Positions 654 through 22,199 of a DNA stretch of 64,000 nt are shown piece by piece. Positions within the stretch are counted from its first letter, which is position 1; each line of letters starts with the position of its first letter. This DNA comes from Alphaproteobacteria bacterium. GTDB taxonomy: Bacteria; Pseudomonadota; Alphaproteobacteria; GCA-2731375. Made by a program: the position numbers and the translations under genes. Under the pieces are notes generated by a model. The model did not search any database. It saw only the letters and a program-made list of their open reading frames with translations, and was not told the origin of the DNA. The stretch covers positions 1,821,963-1,885,962 of the forward strand of contig CBDDDJ010000004.1 in the NCBI GenBank assembly GCA_965226475.1, given 5' to 3'.

Positions 654-2285
654 ATGCGCCTCGACAATTCCATCCGCCCGATTCGCCTCGTCCTCGCTTT
701 CGCGTTCGCGTTCCAGTTCGCCGCCTTCGGCGCGCTGGCCGGTCCGGTCGCCGAGCAGTTGCAGCTCCGCCTCGATGCCGCCGACGCGGAGGCCTCGGCG
801 GGCGATCCCGACGTCGACTTGGGGGCGGTCCGGGATTTCTATCTCGGGCGGGCGTTCCGCCCGCTCAGGATCGACGAGGACGGCGCCACGCTCGCGGCCC
901 GAATCTTCGCGGCGCGGCTCGCCGCCTCGGAATCGGACGGCCTCTATCCGGTCGACTACGACGCTGGCTTCTTCGCCGAAAACCTGGAAGCGACGGGGCC
1001 CGCGGAGCGCGCCGACCTCGAGTTCAAGTTGAGTCGGGCGCTGCTCGCCTATGGGCGGGATCTCTCGGCCGGGCGAGTCGATCCGGCGCGGGTCGATTCC
1101 GAACTCCACATCCGGCCGAGCGCGGTACCAGCGGAAGAGCTTTTCGCCGCCGCCGAAGGGGTGGACTTCGCCGCCTACCTTTCGGCACTCGCACCCCAGA
1201 GCGTGAACTACGCGCGGTTGAAAGCGGCCTTGGCCGACTATCGCCGACTCGCCGGGCGGGGCGGCTGGGGCCGGGTGCCCGACGGCGAGACACTGAAACC
1301 GGGAATGCGCGACGCGGCGATTCCCGCGCTCCGTCGACGTCTCGCGGCGGGCGGAGACCTGGCGCAAGACGCCATTGCCTCCGAGGCGTACGACGAGACG
1401 CTGGAAGAGGCGGTTCGGCGCTTCCAACGGCGCCATGGCCTCGACGTCGACGGCGCCGTCGGCAAGATGACCCGGAAGGCCTTGAACGTGCCGGTGACGG
1501 CGCGGATCGAGCAGATGCTGCTCAACATGGAACGGCGGCGCTGGATGCCGGACGACCTCGGCCGGAGCTACGTTTTCGTCAACATGGCGGATTTCGTGCT
1601 GAAATACGTCGTCGGGCCGAAGACCTACCTGGATACCCGCGTCGTCATCGGCAAGCCCTATCACCGCACGCCGGTATTCAGCGACCGGATGCGCTACATC
1701 GTCATCAATCCCTACTGGACGGTGCCGCCGTCGATCGCGCGCAAGGAAATCCTGCCGAAACTCAAGAAGAACGCCAATTACCTAGCCGAAAAGAACATAA
1801 AGCTTTTCAGCGGCTGGAACGCCTCGGCCGCCGTGCTCGATGCAACGACGATCGACTGGTCGGCGGTGAGCCCGCGCGGCTTCGGCTACCGCCTGCGCCA
1901 GGAGCCGGGCAAGGGCAACGCGCTCGGCACGCTGAAATTCATGTTCCCGAACCGCTTCAACGTCTATTTGCACGACACGCCGGCCCGCTCGCTGTTCAAG
2001 AAAGCGGTCCGCAGCTTCAGCCACGGCTGCATCCGGGTCGAGAATCCGGACGAATTCGCCGCCATGCTGCTGCGTGACCACGAGGGCTGGTCGCGGGAGG
2101 AAATCCAGGCCGCGATTGCCTCGGGCAAGCGCCAGGTCGTCACCTTGAAGACGTCGATTCCAGTCCACCTAACCTATCTCACCGCCTGGGTGAACAAGGA
2201 CGCCAGCGTGCATTTCCGCGACGACATCTACGACCGCGACAAACGCCTACGCAAGGCGCTCGACCACCTGCAGCGGCCGCTTTAG
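654..2285 (+). CDS. L,D-transpeptidase of the YcbB/LdtD family, with a peptidoglycan-binding domain and a YkuD catalytic domain
   Basis: 543 aa with an N-terminal signal peptide. It has a PG_binding_1-like segment (RFQRRHGLDVDGAVGKMTRKALN). The YkuD domain ends ...NVYLHDTPARSLFKKAVRSFSHGCIRVENP, with the catalytic Cys in the SHGC motif. Confidence 0.85.
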   Translation: MRLDNSIRPIRLVLAFAFAFQFAAFGALAGPVAEQLQLRLDAADAEASAGDPDVDLGAVRDFYLGRAFRPLRIDEDGATLAARIFAARLAASESDGLYPVDYDAGFFAENLEATGPAERADLEFKLSRALLAYGRDLSAGRVDPARVDSELHIRPSAVPAEELFAAAEGVDFAAYLSALAPQSVNYARLKAALADYRRLAGRGGWGRVPDGETLKPGMRDAAIPALRRRLAAGGDLAQDAIASEAYDETLEEAVRRFQRRHGLDVDGAVGKMTRKALNVPVTARIEQMLLNMERRRWMPDDLGRSYVFVNMADFVLKYVVGPKTYLDTRVVIGKPYHRTPVFSDRMRYIVINPYWTVPPSIARKEILPKLKKNANYLAEKNIKLFSGWNASAAVLDATTIDWSAVSPRGFGYRLRQEPGKGNALGTLKFMFPNRFNVYLHDTPARSLFKKAVRSFSHGCIRVENPDEFAAMLLRDHEGWSREEIQAAIASGKRQVVTLKTSIPVHLTYLTAWVNKDASVHFRDDIYDRDKRLRKALDHLQRPL

Positions 2286-2293
2286 GCATCGTT
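2280..2293. repeat. Left copy of a perfect 14-bp direct repeat (ctttaggcatcgtt) flanking the IS cluster
   Basis: The identical 14-mer recurs at 4949-4962. The two copies lie immediately outside the inverted termini of the 2294-4948 element. Confidence 0.7.
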
Positions 2294-2298
2294 GAGTC

Positions 2299-2347
2299 GG
2301 ACCCGATTTCCTTGGACACAGAATTGGCTTAATGGCTTATCCCTTTG
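2299..2347. repeat. Terminal inverted repeat T1 (left end of the IS1595-like element and of the whole cluster)
   Basis: About 38 bp pairs with 3549-3588. The outer roughly 25 bp also pairs with 4921-4945. Confidence 0.7.
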
Positions 2348-2543
2348 CTTCCGGTCACACCAGATGTTGATCGGCCTTCTACGTTCCAGGCACGGTTTTC
2401 GGACCGTGCCGGGGGATGTGCGGGAGCTTTTGGACTTGAGGAAGTTGGTTTCGAGTGCTGTCAGGCAGACTGGAGGGCCGGTATTCGGCTCCGATTGAGG
2501 CGGATCGGAGGGCGGGCGATGGCTGGCGCCCGGCCTGCCGGGA

Positions 2544-3482
2544 TCAGACGTGTTGTCCGACGATGTCGCGGTAGTCGGCGGGTCGCAGGCGCGTGCCGAT
2601 GCCGAGCAGGGTATCGAAAGCCGTTGCGGTGTGGCGGCGGCGGTTCCAGCGGAACACGAACTCGTCGAGGTAGCGGCGCAGATGGGCGCGGCGCAGGCCA
2701 TGGAAGGTTCCGAGCGCCCAGCGCTTCAGGTTCGAGAACACACGATGGATCCACGTCAGCACGAGATGGGCGGGCGTTGCACCGACGACCTTGGGCTGGT
2801 GGTCGTGGTCGGGCAGGCCGCAATAACCGCTCCAGCCATCGGTAATCACCCGCGCGCCCGGCGCCGAGGTTCCGGCAACGAAGGCACGAAGGCTGCGCGC
2901 GGAGAAATCCCCGATCGGCGCCAGCCGGATGCGGCGTGGCTCGCCCTCGGGCGATAGCTCGACCGCGCCGGCAATGCGCATCTTGCCTTGTGGGCTGCGA
3001 CCTTGCCCGCCTGTGGCCGGGTCTTTTGCGGTGCGGAACGGGAGGGTGGCCTCATCGATCTCGATCAGGTCCTCAAGCAGGCTGCGATCCGGATTGACCA
3101 TGGCACGGCGCAGCTTGTGCAGCAGGAGCCAGGCACTCTTGTAACTGCCGAGCCCGAGCTGGGCCTGGAGTTGCAGGGCGGAGATACCATTCGAGTGGCT
3201 GGTCACGATGTGAACGGCCATGAACCAGGTCTTCAGGGGCAAGTGGCTGCGGTGCATGATCGTGCCTGCGGTCACCGAGGTCTCCTTCCCGCAGGCCGCA
3301 CATTCCCAGCTCGCCCGGCGCCGCTTCAGTTCCCAGCCCCTGTCATGGCCGCAGGCGGGGCAGACGAAGCCGTCGGGCCAGCGCCTGGCGGCGAGATGCC
3401 GGGCACAGGAGGCTTCATCGGGAAAGCGCGCCTCGAAGGCGGCGCGGGACATGGGGCGGTCATATTTCCAGCGGCTGGCCAT
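2544..3482 (-). CDS. IS1595-family DDE transposase
   Basis: 312 aa. The N-terminus has a zinc-ribbon (FVCPACGHDRGWELKRRRASWECAACGKE) typical of the IS1595 transposase N-domain. The C-terminal half shows the DDE_Tnp_IS1595-like segment (ITDGWSGY ... HRVFSNLKRWALGTFHG ... RYLDEFVFRWNRR). Confidence 0.85.
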   Translation of the reverse strand: MASRWKYDRPMSRAAFEARFPDEASCARHLAARRWPDGFVCPACGHDRGWELKRRRASWECAACGKETSVTAGTIMHRSHLPLKTWFMAVHIVTSHSNGISALQLQAQLGLGSYKSAWLLLHKLRRAMVNPDRSLLEDLIEIDEATLPFRTAKDPATGGQGRSPQGKMRIAGAVELSPEGEPRRIRLAPIGDFSARSLRAFVAGTSAPGARVITDGWSGYCGLPDHDHQPKVVGATPAHLVLTWIHRVFSNLKRWALGTFHGLRRAHLRRYLDEFVFRWNRRRHTATAFDTLLGIGTRLRPADYRDIVGQHV

Positions 3483-3548
3483 GACGGAACATTACACGAA
3501 CATGCTGCCGACGCCCACCAGAAACTCAACATCTCGTCAAACCGGGCT

Positions 3549-3599
3549 CAAAGGGATAAGCCCTTTGGCTTAATCGAAGTGTCCAAGGAGGACCGGAAC
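3549..3599. repeat. Terminal inverted repeat T2 (right end of the IS1595-like element; it also lies immediately 5' of IS3 orfA)
   Basis: It is the reverse complement of T1 over about 38 bp, apart from a short central mismatch block. Only about 10 nt separate it from the orfA ATG. Confidence 0.7.
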
Positions 3600-4010
3600 A
3601 TGGCCGATAATTTTGAGAAGAAAGTTGCTGTTGATGGGCCTGTGGTAAATGCGGGCGAGCTTGGCTCGTCCACGTTTTCCCCAGGCCAGGCTTTGCCGGC
3701 AGGCCCGCTGGGACTTGGCCAGCGATGGACGGTGGCGCGCAAGCGTGAGGTCGTTCCGCGGCTTTTGCGTGACGAGCCGGTGCAACTTCTGTCGCGCCAG
3801 TTGGGCGTAGAGATCTTCCGGCTCGAGCAGTGGCGTGAGAAAGCGATCGGCGGGATCGACGCCTCGCTCAAGCGACGCAAGGGCGATCCGGTGCAGGCGG
3901 AACTGGATAGCGCCATGAAGCGGATCGGAGAGTTGACCATGCAGGTGGAACTGCTGGAGGCCAAGACGGAGACCTTCGGCCCTTTGGGGCGGCGGAGGTC
4001 GCGGCGATGA
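3600..4010 (+). CDS. IS3-family transposase OrfA (small HTH/leucine-zipper protein)
   Basis: 136 aa, MADNFEKK...RRKGDPVQAELDSAMKRIGELTMQVELLEAKTETF. It overlaps orfB in an ATGA arrangement. The orfB reading frame is open from 3911, which gives a roughly 100-nt -1-frame overlap typical of IS3 programmed frameshifting. Confidence 0.75.
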   Translation: MADNFEKKVAVDGPVVNAGELGSSTFSPGQALPAGPLGLGQRWTVARKREVVPRLLRDEPVQLLSRQLGVEIFRLEQWREKAIGGIDASLKRRKGDPVQAELDSAMKRIGELTMQVELLEAKTETFGPLGRRRSRR

Positions 4011-4912
4011 GTGCCGCCACCTCGCCCGGCACGGGTCTGGCCTACGGCCTGCGGCGGGTCTGCGCCGCCTGGGGCATGGCCCGCTCCTCGTTCTACGCCA
4101 TGACCTCCGGCCAGCACGCCGAGCAGCCGCCGGCAAAGCGTCGGGGACCGAAGCCCGCGATCTCGGACCAGGCGCTGCTGGTGGCGATCGAAGCCGACCT
4201 GGAGGCATCGCCCTGGGAGGGCGAGGGCTACCGCAAGGTCTGGGCTCGGCTTCGGGTCTGTCGCGACATCCGGGTTGCCCGCAAGCGGGTGCTCCGCCTG
4301 ATGCGCGAGAACAATCTGCTCTCGCCCCATCGCTGCCGCCGCCGTGGCGGCAATCCCCATGACGGTGAGATCATCACTCATGCCCCGAACCTCATGTGGG
4401 GCACCGATGGCGTTCGGGTGTTCACGGTGGACGACGGCTGGGGCTGGATCTTCACCGCCGTCGAGCATTGGAACGCCGAGTGTGTCGGCTGGCATGTCTG
4501 CAAGCGCGGCGACCGCTTCGCCGCCCTGCAGCCGATCTCCATGGGGCTTGCCGGGCTGTATGGCTCGACCGCGGCCGGCGCGGCTCGGGGGCTGGCCTTG
4601 CGGATGGATCACGGCTCCCAGTATCTGTCGGACCACTTCACCAACCAGATCAAGTTCTGGGGCATCCAGCCGTCCTACGCCTTCGTCGCCGAGCCCCAGA
4701 CCAACGGCGTCGCCGAGCGGTTCAATCGCACGCTGAAGGAACAGATCATCCATGGTCGCATCTACCGCAACATCGCGGAGCTGCGGGACGCCGTCCGCGA
4801 CTTCGTCGAACTCTACAATGCCCAGTGGATCGTCGAAAAGAACGGCTACCTGAGCCCCGCTCAAGCTCGTCAGGCGTGGCACGCCGCGATCTCAATCAGG
4901 CCCGCCGCGTGA
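4007..4912 (+). CDS. IS3-family transposase OrfB (integrase catalytic core, rve domain)
   Basis: 301 aa. It has an N-terminal HTH (GLRRVCAAWGMARSSFY) and a DDE core (...WGTDGVRVFT..., ...RMDHGSQYLSDHF..., ...QTNGVAERFNRTLKEQ). It lies in the -1 frame relative to orfA. Confidence 0.85.
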   Translation: MSAATSPGTGLAYGLRRVCAAWGMARSSFYAMTSGQHAEQPPAKRRGPKPAISDQALLVAIEADLEASPWEGEGYRKVWARLRVCRDIRVARKRVLRLMRENNLLSPHRCRRRGGNPHDGEIITHAPNLMWGTDGVRVFTVDDGWGWIFTAVEHWNAECVGWHVCKRGDRFAALQPISMGLAGLYGSTAAGAARGLALRMDHGSQYLSDHFTNQIKFWGIQPSYAFVAEPQTNGVAERFNRTLKEQIIHGRIYRNIAELRDAVRDFVELYNAQWIVEKNGYLSPAQARQAWHAAISIRPAA

Positions 4913-4920
4913 GACAAACT

Positions 4921-4948
4921 TGTGTCCAAGGAACCGGGTGCGCTACAG
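4921..4948. repeat. Terminal repeat T3 (solo or short right-end copy of the T-type terminus)
   Basis: tgtgtccaagg is the exact inverted complement of ccttggacaca at 2310-2320. The adjacent aaccgggtgcg pairs imperfectly with ggacccgattt of T1. Confidence 0.6.
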
Positions 4949-4962
4949 CTTTAGGCATCGTT
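4949..4962. repeat. Right copy of the perfect 14-bp direct repeat (ctttaggcatcgtt)
   Basis: It is identical to 2280-2293. Confidence 0.7.
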
Positions 4963-5050
4963 AACGCTTGCACCTTTAAATTTCCAGGCTAGACTGCGCG
5001 CCCAAGGGGTTGATTCCGCGACCTCTTGGCGGTTGTAGGGGAACGTTCGC

Positions 5051-5596
5051 GTGGAGCATGTCGATTCCGGCCGCCGCGCCCTGTTGCGCGTGGCACTGCC
5101 CGCCGTCGCGGCGATGACGCCCCTGGGCGCGCTCGCCCGCGCCGTGCCGGCCAAGCCCCGGCGGCTGAAGCTGCACAACCTCCACACTGGCGAAAATCTG
5201 GTGACGGTCTATCACGCCGACGGCCGCTATCTGGCCGAACCGCTCGGCGAGATCGACTGGATGCTGCGCGACTGGCGCACCGACGAGCGCACGGCCATGG
5301 ACCGCCGCCTGCTGGACCTGCTGCATGCCCTCCACCTGGAGATGGACTCGACCCGGCCCTTCGAGATCATTTCCGGCTATCGCTCGCCCGCGACCAATTC
5401 GATGCTGGTGAAGAGGAACGGCGGCGTCGCCAGGAAAAGCCTCCACATGAAGGCGATGGCGGCGGACGTGCGCCTACCCGACCGCGATCTCGGCACGCTC
5501 TACCGCGCCGCCCGCCGCTTGAAGCTCGGCGGCGTCGGCATTTACCGCAAGGCCGACTTCATCCACGTCGACACCGGCCGCGTCCGCTACTGGTAG
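5051..5596 (+). CDS. DUF882 (YcbK/MepK-like peptidase M15A family) protein, Tat-exported
   Basis: 181 aa. It has a twin-arginine motif (SGRRALLRVAL) and a DUF882 core (FEIISGYRSPATNSMLVKRNGGVARKSLHMKAMAADVRLPDRDLGTLYRAARRLKLGGVGIYRKADFIHVDTG). The E. coli homologues ycbB and ycbK are neighbours. Confidence 0.8.
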   Translation: MEHVDSGRRALLRVALPAVAAMTPLGALARAVPAKPRRLKLHNLHTGENLVTVYHADGRYLAEPLGEIDWMLRDWRTDERTAMDRRLLDLLHALHLEMDSTRPFEIISGYRSPATNSMLVKRNGGVARKSLHMKAMAADVRLPDRDLGTLYRAARRLKLGGVGIYRKADFIHVDTGRVRYW

Positions 5597-7234
5597 GCGG
5601 CTGCCCCTCGCATCAAGGCAATGAGGCCCGCCGGATCGGCCGGCGGCCCATCCCCACGCCACGCGACATGCTGGTCGGGCCGGGCGAGGACCAGGGCCCG
5701 GTCGTAGGGTGCCGTCGGCGCCAGATCGAGCAGGGTCAACGGTACGCCACGCGCTTCGGCCGCGTCCAGCAGCGGCCGGACCTCGATGCCGGGATCGAAG
5801 CGCAGCAGCGTGTAGCCCTCTCCCAGGCGATCGTGGAGGCTTCGGCCATCCGCCAGAAACACATGCGGCAGGCGGCAGCCCGGCACGGTGGAGGGAGTGA
5901 ACGCGGCCATGGTGTAGCCCGGCGCGGCCTCGCCGTCGTGGGCGATGATGGGTGAATTTTCATAGAAACAGCCAAAATTGAGGCCGGCGCAGCAGTATTG
6001 CTGGACGTTCAAGGCATAGGCGCGTTCGCCGAGGGCCCGGCGCGCGGCCTCGCCCGCTTCGTCCTCATCCTCGATATTGGCGGGCACGGCGCCGCGCTGG
6101 CCGGCCATGGCGTGGGCGTGGTCCATCACGAAGCGGGAGACTTGGCGGGTGATCGGCCCGCGCTCGGCCTCGTGCGCGTCGAGGATGGCTTCCCCGGCCC
6201 AACCGGCGAGGTGCGCGGCCAGCAGCCAGGCGAGATTGGCGGCGTCCGCGATGCCGGCGTTCATGCCGTAGCCGGCATAAGGCACCCAGATGTGGGCGGC
6301 ATCGCCGGCGATGAAGACCCGGCGGTCCCGGATCCTGTCGGCGACCAGGCGGCGGCCGATCCAGTCAATCGGCGCCAGCAGCTCACACCCGAAGTCGGCG
6401 CCGACACCCAGGATCTCTCGGATCGCCCAATCGCGGTCCACCGCGTCGAAGCCGGCCTCTTCCGGGCGCAGGCAGTTGTGCACCACCCAGCGCTCGCGCC
6501 CGTCGATGGCGTAGACGTTGCCGCTGCGCCGGGGGTTGAGGGAGAAGGTGGCCCAGGCCGGCGCCTCCCGTTGCCGCTCGATCAGCTTCGGCGCGCGGAT
6601 ATAGCTCGACTGCACCCGCTGGATCACCGCGTCACCCTCGAGGCGCGCGCCCATGGCGCGGCGGATGGAGGAGCGGCCGCCGTCGCAGCCGACCAGATAA
6701 CGACAGCGAATCCGGGTCTCGGTCCCGTCCTCCAGGCTCCGGGCGGTCGCCAGCACGTGGTCGTCCGCCTGCGTGAAATCCTCGACCGTGGCGCGGGTCA
6801 TGATGCGCGCGCCGGCCATGGCTTCGGCGTGGGCGAAGAGGATCGGCTCCAGGAAGATCTGGTTGATGCGGTGCGGCGGTTCCGCCGTCGGCCAATCGGT
6901 GTCCGGGCCGTTCACGGCGGTGAAGCGGTCGCGCCGGCAGGGGATCGGAATCCGCGTGAGTTCGCGCCCGGTGAAGCTGGTGCGGTAGGAGACGTCGTTG
7001 GGATAGTCGGCGGGCAGGCCGGCGTCGCGCAACGCACCCGCCACAGCCGAGGCGGCGGAAGATCTCCATCGAGCGGGCGACGACGTGGTTGCACTTGGGC
7101 GGCGGTGGCTCGCTCCGCGCGCGCTTCTCCACCACCATGACCTCGATGCCGCGCCAGGCCAGATCCGTCGCCAAGGTCAGGCCGACCGGCCCGCCGCCGA
7201 CGATGAGGACGGGGACTTCGATCTCGCGCATCAT
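5587..7234 (-). pseudogene. FAD-dependent aromatic-ring monooxygenase (PheA/TfdB-like), split by a 1-nt frameshift near 7040-7050
   Basis: The N-terminal Rossmann segment MMREIEVPVLIVGGGPVGLTLATDLAWRGIEVMVVEKR...ARSMEIFRRLG is in one frame, starting at 7234. The remaining 485 aa, from ...AGALRDAGLPADYPND to the C-terminus, is in the adjacent frame. The junction lies at ggcTgtggcggg. Confidence 0.6.
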
Positions 7235-22110: not shown

Positions 22111-22126
22111 TGTTGTGGTTGTTGGG

Positions 22127-22178
22127 CCTGTGGATAAGTGGGGAACCCGCCGTGGCGGGTTGTCCACTTATCCACAGG
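22127..22178. repeat. 52-bp near-perfect palindrome inside the IS, downstream of the transposase stop
   Basis: The arms are cctgtggataagtggggaacccgcc and its reverse complement, matching at 23 of 25 positions. The centre is aacccgcc-gt-ggcgggtt. Confidence 0.7.
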
Positions 22179-22199
22179 CCGGGCGCGCGTCGAAGCGGT

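Follow-up and report, generated by a model that had tools for sequence, protein, structure and literature searches.

The window, a stretch of 64,000 nucleotides (64 kb) from contig CBDDDJ010000004.1 of an Alphaproteobacteria bacterium (assembly GCA_965226475.1), carries two insertion sequences (IS) between an ldtD-like and a mepK-like gene. An IS1595-family element lies inside an IS3-family element, and each has its own target-site duplication. The ldtD-like gene (654-2285, plus strand) encodes a YcbB-type L,D-transpeptidase of 543 amino acids, with the Pfam domains Scaffold, PG_binding_1 and YkuD and a match to NCBIfam PRK10594. The mepK-like gene (5051-5596, plus strand) encodes a DUF882/Peptidase_M15_2 protein with an RR motif near the N-terminus (PF05951; NF053624 with 192.4 bits against a cut-off of 185). 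These matches bear out the original prediction for this stretch, that the mobile block splits a YcbB/LdtD-like gene from a MepK/DUF882 gene. The two genes had also been said to be adjacent in other bacteria, and in E. coli K-12 they are adjacent and co-oriented (b0925 and b0926). The spacer hit by the IS3-family element is 96 bp long, and 103 nt separate the end of the element from the start of mepK. The LdtD protein is unaltered, because the stop codon of ldtD (TAG, 2283-2285) falls inside the duplicated 14-mer. Contigs that have the insertion and contigs that lack it encode the same MepK product.

The outer element and its place in the IS3 family

The IS3-family element extends from 2293 to 4947 on the plus strand and measures 2655 bp with its insert. 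It begins with TG (2293-2294) and ends with CA (4946-4947), termini that the original prediction had been unable to find for the IS3 module. The first 39 nt (2293-2331) hold the left inverted repeat, which starts with TGAGTCGG; this part was delimited by gapless alignment to independent copies, by alignment of the left and right repeats and by RNA folding. The remainder of the element, positions 40-1414, is found at 3573-4947 and ends in ...GCGCTACA. The right inverted repeat, containing GTGTCCAAGGAACCGGGTGCGCTACA, occupies 4910-4947 according to the alignments of ends and repeats. Excision of 2332-3572 in silico, joining 2293-2331 to 3573-4947, gave an element of 1414 bp.

Six uninterrupted copies (L124-L128 and L130) match this reconstruction with 100% identity from end to end, and three of them (L127, L128 and L130) are located on the same 9.06-Mb contig as the locus of the window (ERZ28763718:ctg125884). 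In a BLAST comparison the reconstruction aligns end to end and without gaps to about 100 independent copies. The inverted repeats are imperfect and about 38 nt long, and the TG...CA ends are identical in all of the roughly 100 copies. Stand-alone copies of the outer and the inner element were obtained by exact look-up of the orfB and IS1595 proteins in public assemblies. The locus of the window is also represented by L117 (ERZ28763718:ctg125884, 7635207-7643838), with three differences in the IS3 part alone, at positions 276, 341 and 801. The sequence of the window is therefore probably that of a sister strain or of another assembly.

The element contains two open reading frames (ORFs) on the plus strand. 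The first, orfA (3600-4010), was taken from the ORF list and encodes 136 amino acids with a weak Pfam match to HTH_Tnp_1. The second, orfB (4007-4912), encodes 301 amino acids with an rve-type DDE domain (Pfam HTH_21, rve, rve_3 and rve_2; NF033516) and the residues D134, D201, E237 and K244. The triad is of the DD(35)E type, with 35 residues between D201 and E237, and K244 stands seven residues past the glutamate. The two ORFs overlap at ATGA with orfB in the -1 frame, so that the predicted IS3-family orfA/orfB module with a -1 frame overlap is confirmed together with the NF033516 match. The orfB frame is open from about 3911, some 31 codons upstream of the orfB ATG.

Frame reading and RNA folding identified a candidate -1 slippery heptamer, C CCT TTG, in the orfA frame at 3980-3986, followed by a G+C-rich stem-loop with a fold z-score of only -1.4. 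OrfAB would arise by -1 frameshifting at this site (C CCU UUG). A conceptual OrfAB fusion, joined between FGPL and GAAEV, matches NF033516 with 182.1 bits (cut-off 160), uninterrupted over model positions 3-369 of 369, and orfB alone gives 155.7 bits. A natural fused variant of 439 amino acids (P0105) joins exactly between GPL and GAAEV, the predicted slippery-site junction.

Fused OrfAB ORFs of 437-439 amino acids are called in many ENA assemblies, among the proteins related to the product of 4007-4912 (P0059-P0177). P0105 has 35 members and is 93% identical, and P0062 is fused a few codons earlier. These fusions could be genuine variants with a constitutive fusion, or products of homopolymer indel errors in assemblies of long reads.

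Judged by its transposase, gene layout and termini, the element is a member of the IS3 family. It shares with IS911, IS2, IS3, IS150 and IS407 the -1 orfA/orfB overlap, the DD(35)E signature with the following lysine, the imperfect repeats with TG...CA ends and the length of about 1.4 kb, and its plasmid relatives are annotated 'IS3 family transposase'. It differs in the candidate slippery site, which is C CCU UUG instead of the common A AAA AAG, and in the sequence of orfB, which is only about 32% identical to E. coli IS3-family members (tblastn). The large protein search returned no ISfinder-style transposase names. The IS481 family has related rve-type DDE transposases. Membership in that family was rejected, with 84 bits for NF033577 against a cut-off of 224 and a layout of two ORFs; IS481 elements, in contrast, have one transposase ORF and no orfA/orfB frameshift.

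The IS3 element would move by the copy-out/paste-in route of its family, via a circle. Right-end/left-end junctions of a circle or tandem, with a spacer of 0-30 nt, were absent from JGI metagenome contigs and from 120 loci, an absence that is uninformative.

Relatives of the IS3-type element are encoded in 467 stretches, and 79 loci from GTDB species representatives were kept (L025-L103). In these 79 loci OrfB is 99-100% identical, and the full-length copies are at least 98.9% identical in DNA. The loci come from metagenome-assembled genomes (MAGs) labelled Paracoccaceae, Rhodospirillales, Bauldia and unclassified Alphaproteobacteria, at least 41 of them from a single MAG (CBDHDN01). The element is in a recent bloom, for which either rapid horizontal spread or mis-binning would account.

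The inner element and the left-end hairpin

The IS1595-family element lies on the minus strand at 2332-3564. It is 1233 bp long, with the ends ATGGCTTATCCCTTTG... and ...CAAAGGGATAAGCCCT, as located by end-to-end alignment to stand-alone copies. Its transposase gene (2544-3482, minus strand) encodes 312 amino acids with PF12760 (Zn_ribbon_IS1595) and PF12762 (DDE_Tnp_IS1595) and reaches 182.6 bits with NF033547 (cut-off 75), which agrees with the family assigned to this gene before. The inverted repeats ATGGCTTATCCCTTTG and AGGGCTTATCCCTTTG, at 2332-~2370 and ~3526-3564, are 80% complementary over 40 nt. On either side is the 8-bp duplication made by this element, TTGGCTTA, at 2324-2331 (positions 32-39 of the IS3 element) and at 3565-3572.

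The transposase profile, the 8-bp duplication and the terminal repeats are all those of the IS1595 family, in which, as here, a lone transposase combines an N-terminal zinc ribbon with a DDE_Tnp_IS1595 domain. The ends of the window element, ATGGCTTATC and AGGGCTTATC, are presumably of the ISSod11 type (nnnGcnTATC, 8-bp duplication). At 1233 bp the element is somewhat longer than the 1.0-1.1 kb of that subgroup.

Another 11 contigs encode the exact transposase protein. Nine stand-alone copies in unrelated contexts (L011-L017, L019 and L020) are 99.7-100% identical to the window element over 1233 bp. Exact 8-bp duplications are present at six of the nine, and one more has a 7/8 match. The duplications of the other copies are all AT-rich; the window has a G+C content of 68%. 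L018, the tenth copy, has a match of 1230 bp and is inserted in another copy of the IS3 element.

A motif like TTCCTTGGACAC occurs three times around the two elements, at 2308-2319 (plus strand), at 3579-3590 (minus strand, one mismatch) and at 4922-4933 (minus strand). The original prediction described these places as three related termini, T1, T2 and T3, and took T1 and T2 for the inverted repeats of the IS1595 element. In the intact IS3 element TTTCCTTGGACAC (2307-2319, within the left repeat) pairs with GTGTCCAAGGAGG (3579-3591, plus strand) across an AT-rich loop of 18 nt. The reconstituted left end thereby forms a hairpin with a 13-bp stem (-26.7 kcal/mol, z = -2.9 in RNA folding). The 3' arm overlaps the Shine-Dalgarno sequence of orfA, AAGGAGG, and the loop ranks among the two stretches of the IS3 element richest in A+T. 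Since the IS1595 insertion is in the loop and holds the arms 1.24 kb apart, the arms mimic repeats bounding the IS1595 gene.

On sequence grounds T1 is the left inverted repeat of the IS3 element, T3 is its right inverted repeat, and T2 is an internal hairpin arm and no terminus. Three related copies do exist, but all of them are derived from the IS3 element, and the repeats of the IS1595 element lie at the ends of that element as given above. The 17 of 18 match reported between T2 and T3 consists of only 11 exact bases, further matches needing gaps.

The similarity of T1, T2 and T3 had led to two proposals in which all three would be IS1595 termini: either duplicated IS1595-type ends had enclosed an IS3 module, or the block was left over from recombination of two IS1595-like copies. 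The similarity is superficial, and nothing else speaks for either proposal. Every stand-alone IS3 copy has T1 and T3 as its termini and lies away from any IS1595 element, and T2 is part of every intact IS3 left end. Stand-alone IS1595 copies end in ATGGCTTATCC.../...GGATAAGCCCT, without TTCCTTGGACAC. Capture or remnant is consequently regarded as extremely improbable. Neither of these readings, nor that of a composite moving as one unit, is needed, as both elements occur many times alone.

The hairpin is a conserved left-end feature, because relatives carry equivalents of different sequence: TTTTTCTGGACA/TGTCCAGAAAAGGAG in Burkholderia RPE67 and TTTCTTGAGA/TCTCAGGAAAGGGGAG in Rhodobacter. It would mask the ribosome-binding site of orfA in read-through transcripts, or serve as a transposase-binding site. 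A second transposase-binding site is an equal candidate, because the proximal arm is the conserved inner motif of the left repeat (TTGGACAC). Left-end hairpins of IS10 and IS50 reportedly hide the ribosome-binding site of the transposase from read-through transcripts. The hairpin in the window resembles these in that its distal arm, near the left end, overlaps the Shine-Dalgarno sequence of the first ORF. It differs in that the proximal arm doubles as the inner left-repeat motif, and its function is a prediction from sequence.

The 14-bp target-site duplication

The IS3 element is flanked by a 14-bp duplication, GCTTTAGGCATCGT, at 2279-2292 and 4948-4961. The left copy was recognised from empty-site contigs with a single copy, and the right copy by placing the repeat against the ends of the element. 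The perfect 14-bp repeats noted earlier around the block are thus a true target duplication. In the form first read, the 14-mer CTTTAGGCATCGTT occurs exactly twice in the window (2280-2293 and 4949-4962) and in none of 100 dinucleotide-preserving shuffles; the exact repeat in full is 15 nt (2279-2293 and 4948-4962).

At the empty site, the sequence of contigs L021 and L022 is ...cagcggccGCTTTAGGCATCGTtaacgcttgcacc...; a single 14-mer and no IS lie there between ldtD and a gene for an identical MepK. The empty site that had been predicted (...gcagcggccgctttaggcatcgttaacgcttgcacc...) is present verbatim in related contigs. A second sample gave a contig, L118, with the same nested insertion at the same site. 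Because L118 is nested while L021 and L022 are empty, the insertion is polymorphic among very close strains.

Alternatively, the 14-mer might be a repeat native to the site, or might match by chance; all that speaks for this is the general caution in the original prediction about chance 14-mers in 64 kb. The single copy at the empty site excludes a longer native repeat, and a chance match is hard to reconcile with two copies in the window and none in the shuffles. Different 14-mers, moreover, flank about 65 other copies of the element and its relatives in four named organisms of three genera. The probability left to a native motif or a chance match is negligible.

The other copies were examined as 86 distinct flank pairs, comprising the 79 loci from the scan of GTDB species representatives and the loci fetched earlier via orfB. 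An exact 14-bp duplication abuts the TG and CA in 55 of the 86 pairs, or in 59 when one mismatch is allowed; the duplication is 15 bp in two pairs and 16 bp in one. A further set has exact 14-bp duplications in seven of ten copies, and about 65 of 96 other copies pooled have a 14-bp duplication. The duplicated sequences vary from site to site, with a weak symmetric preference for A/T at positions 6 and 9, for a pyrimidine just before the duplication and for a purine shortly after it.

Exact 14-bp duplications are also found with relatives whose OrfB is 60% identical, in Burkholderia sp. RPE67 p1, Caballeronia sp. SBC1 and B. gladioli, and with a 54% identical relative in Skermanella mucosa. 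The Burkholderia, Caballeronia and Skermanella relatives share the TG...CA ends and an inner TGGACAC-like motif. The 46% identical element of Rhodobacter xanthinilyticus has a 15-bp duplication. No clear flanking duplication was seen with the relatives of 44-47% identity in Methylobacterium DM1, Roseomonas, Desulfohalobium and Solidesulfovibrio, each represented by one copy and hence uninformative.

Duplications in the IS3 family are typically 3-5 bp, a value that is typical and not strictly defining, and those of the IS481 family are 4-15 bp. The window element departs from the IS3 range with duplications of 14 bp and occasionally 15-16 bp. The IS481 range provides a precedent for long duplications among close relatives of the IS3 family. 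No bacterial IS3-type element with a 14-bp duplication was described in the literature searched. Relative to the IS3 range, a regular 14-bp duplication in an IS3-family clade would be a modest novelty, and it is the sole departure from textbook behaviour.

The 1414-bp element and its alpha- and betaproteobacterial relatives, down to at least 54% OrfB identity, may form an undescribed IS3 subgroup with a fixed 14-bp stagger, to which a very recent bloom, with dozens of copies in a genome, would be added. This is a tentative proposal, about which we are more doubtful than confident.

Nested insertion and its consequences

The anatomy of the block, the two duplications, the empty site and the independence of the two elements are best explained by two ordinary transposition events stacked at one site, an IS1595-family element inside an IS3-family element. 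The probability of this explanation is put at roughly 0.9. The 1414-bp IS3-family element would have inserted into the ldtD-mepK spacer by a 14-bp staggered cut, with duplication of GCTTTAGGCATCGT including the ldtD stop codon. The 1233-bp IS1595-family element would have inserted into the AT-rich hairpin loop of the IS3 left end, with duplication of TTGGCTTA. The latter insertion would cut orfA and orfB off from any promoter in the left repeat and leave both IS3 ends intact. The original prediction had considered the case of two independent elements, each with its own inverted repeats and a short duplication. Both elements do have inverted repeats of their own, but the IS3 duplication is a regular 14 bp.

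At L018, on the same 9-Mb contig, a further copy of the IS3 element was hit at TTGGCTTA too, by an IS1595-type insertion of opposite orientation. This site in the IS3 left end looks like a hot spot, with two or three events. The IS1595-type insert of L018 (1948-2921) is itself compound, a second related IS1595-family segment replacing the last few bases of one end. Reciprocal nesting is seen in L126 (2031-4433): an IS1595-family transposase gene is broken there by an IS3-type copy, flanked by an exact 14-bp duplication, that leaves the zinc-ribbon part on one side and the DDE part on the other.

Several points weigh against nested insertion. None of the contigs found carries the IS3 element by itself between ldtD and mepK, which makes any order of the two events conjectural. 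The short-read contigs L119 and L120 break off after the first 31 nt of the IS3 element, and L118 is already nested. About one third of the IS3 copies are without a matching duplication, as is to be expected where copies have recombined or one insertion is nested in another. The frameshift, the hairpin function and the circular intermediate are predictions from what is known of the family.

Alternatively, the 2655-bp IS3::IS1595 block may have arrived as one unit, with OrfAB acting in cis or coming from sister copies and the IS1595 element as cargo. Both IS3 ends and orfA/orfB are intact, the 14-bp duplication brackets the whole block, transposase could come from the many identical IS3 copies of the same genome, and the informative contigs at the site are all empty or nested, with no IS3-only intermediate. 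Against these points, none of about 100 other IS3 copies, sampled via orfA or orfB, holds the IS1595 element. L018 shows an IS1595-type insertion at the same 8-bp site that is independent and in the opposite orientation; repeated insertion into resident IS3 copies therefore suffices. The only other case with the same orientation, L014, has IS3 sequence on one side only. The same composite at more than one site, with its own flanking duplication at each, was not seen in the copies sampled, which cover the source genome in part.

The exact nested left junction, in either orientation, had no matches in JGI metagenome contigs, and the whole block had no match among PLSDB plasmids (megablast). Arrival as one unit is regarded as unlikely, and the stacking of two separate insertions is preferred. 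Private single-nucleotide polymorphisms common to the nested copies were considered as a sign of unit transposition and rejected, since the G at position 70 is also present in ten of ten un-nested copies of the same host lineage. In L014 (4152-4200) the side without IS3 sequence holds TGAGAGTCGGCTGG, which is loosely like the start of the IS3 left end, TGAGTCGGACCCG; this side is about 200 bp from an IS5/IS1182-type transposase gene.

A consensus scan of 2200-5100 on both strands for sigma-70 promoters and intrinsic terminators gave no sites, a result that has no bearing on mepK expression or on an IS3 promoter. Downstream, a gene for a FAD-binding monooxygenase (5587-7044, minus strand) converges on mepK. 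It encodes 485 amino acids in contigs of the window type and 547-550 amino acids at the same locus in the empty-site contigs L021 and L022, pointing to a strain difference in the start site or to an indel. The window gave no matches in Rfam and tRNA scans. Farther away, at 22125-22180, a near-perfect palindrome (27-nt arms, 2-nt gap, 93%) lies where two long minus-strand ORFs abut. Each arm carries one copy of the 9-mer TTATCCACA, the DnaA-box consensus; these are the only two exact copies in the 64-kb window, with about 0.06 expected by chance.

The nested structure is deflationary with respect to mobile elements. No new kind of composite has to be proposed, and the outer element, with its normal architecture, accounts for the three related termini. 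For the host, the insertion parts ldtD from mepK, and MepK is the endopeptidase that cuts the 3-3 cross-links made by LdtD. MepK is essential once the 3-3 cross-links made by YcbB/LdtD dominate (bioRxiv 10.1101/2021.02.12.430937). With the insertion polymorphic among near-identical strains, the locus offers a natural test of the dependence of mepK on read-through from ldtD.

For the IS3 family, a clade with very regular 14-bp duplications runs counter to the 3-5-bp rule by which annotators and IS-calling software set the limits of IS3 elements. If true, a stagger of about 1.3 helical turns would imply a different geometry of target capture in an otherwise canonical IS3 transposase. The clade is also a natural comparison for what sets the length of the stagger in rve-type transposases.

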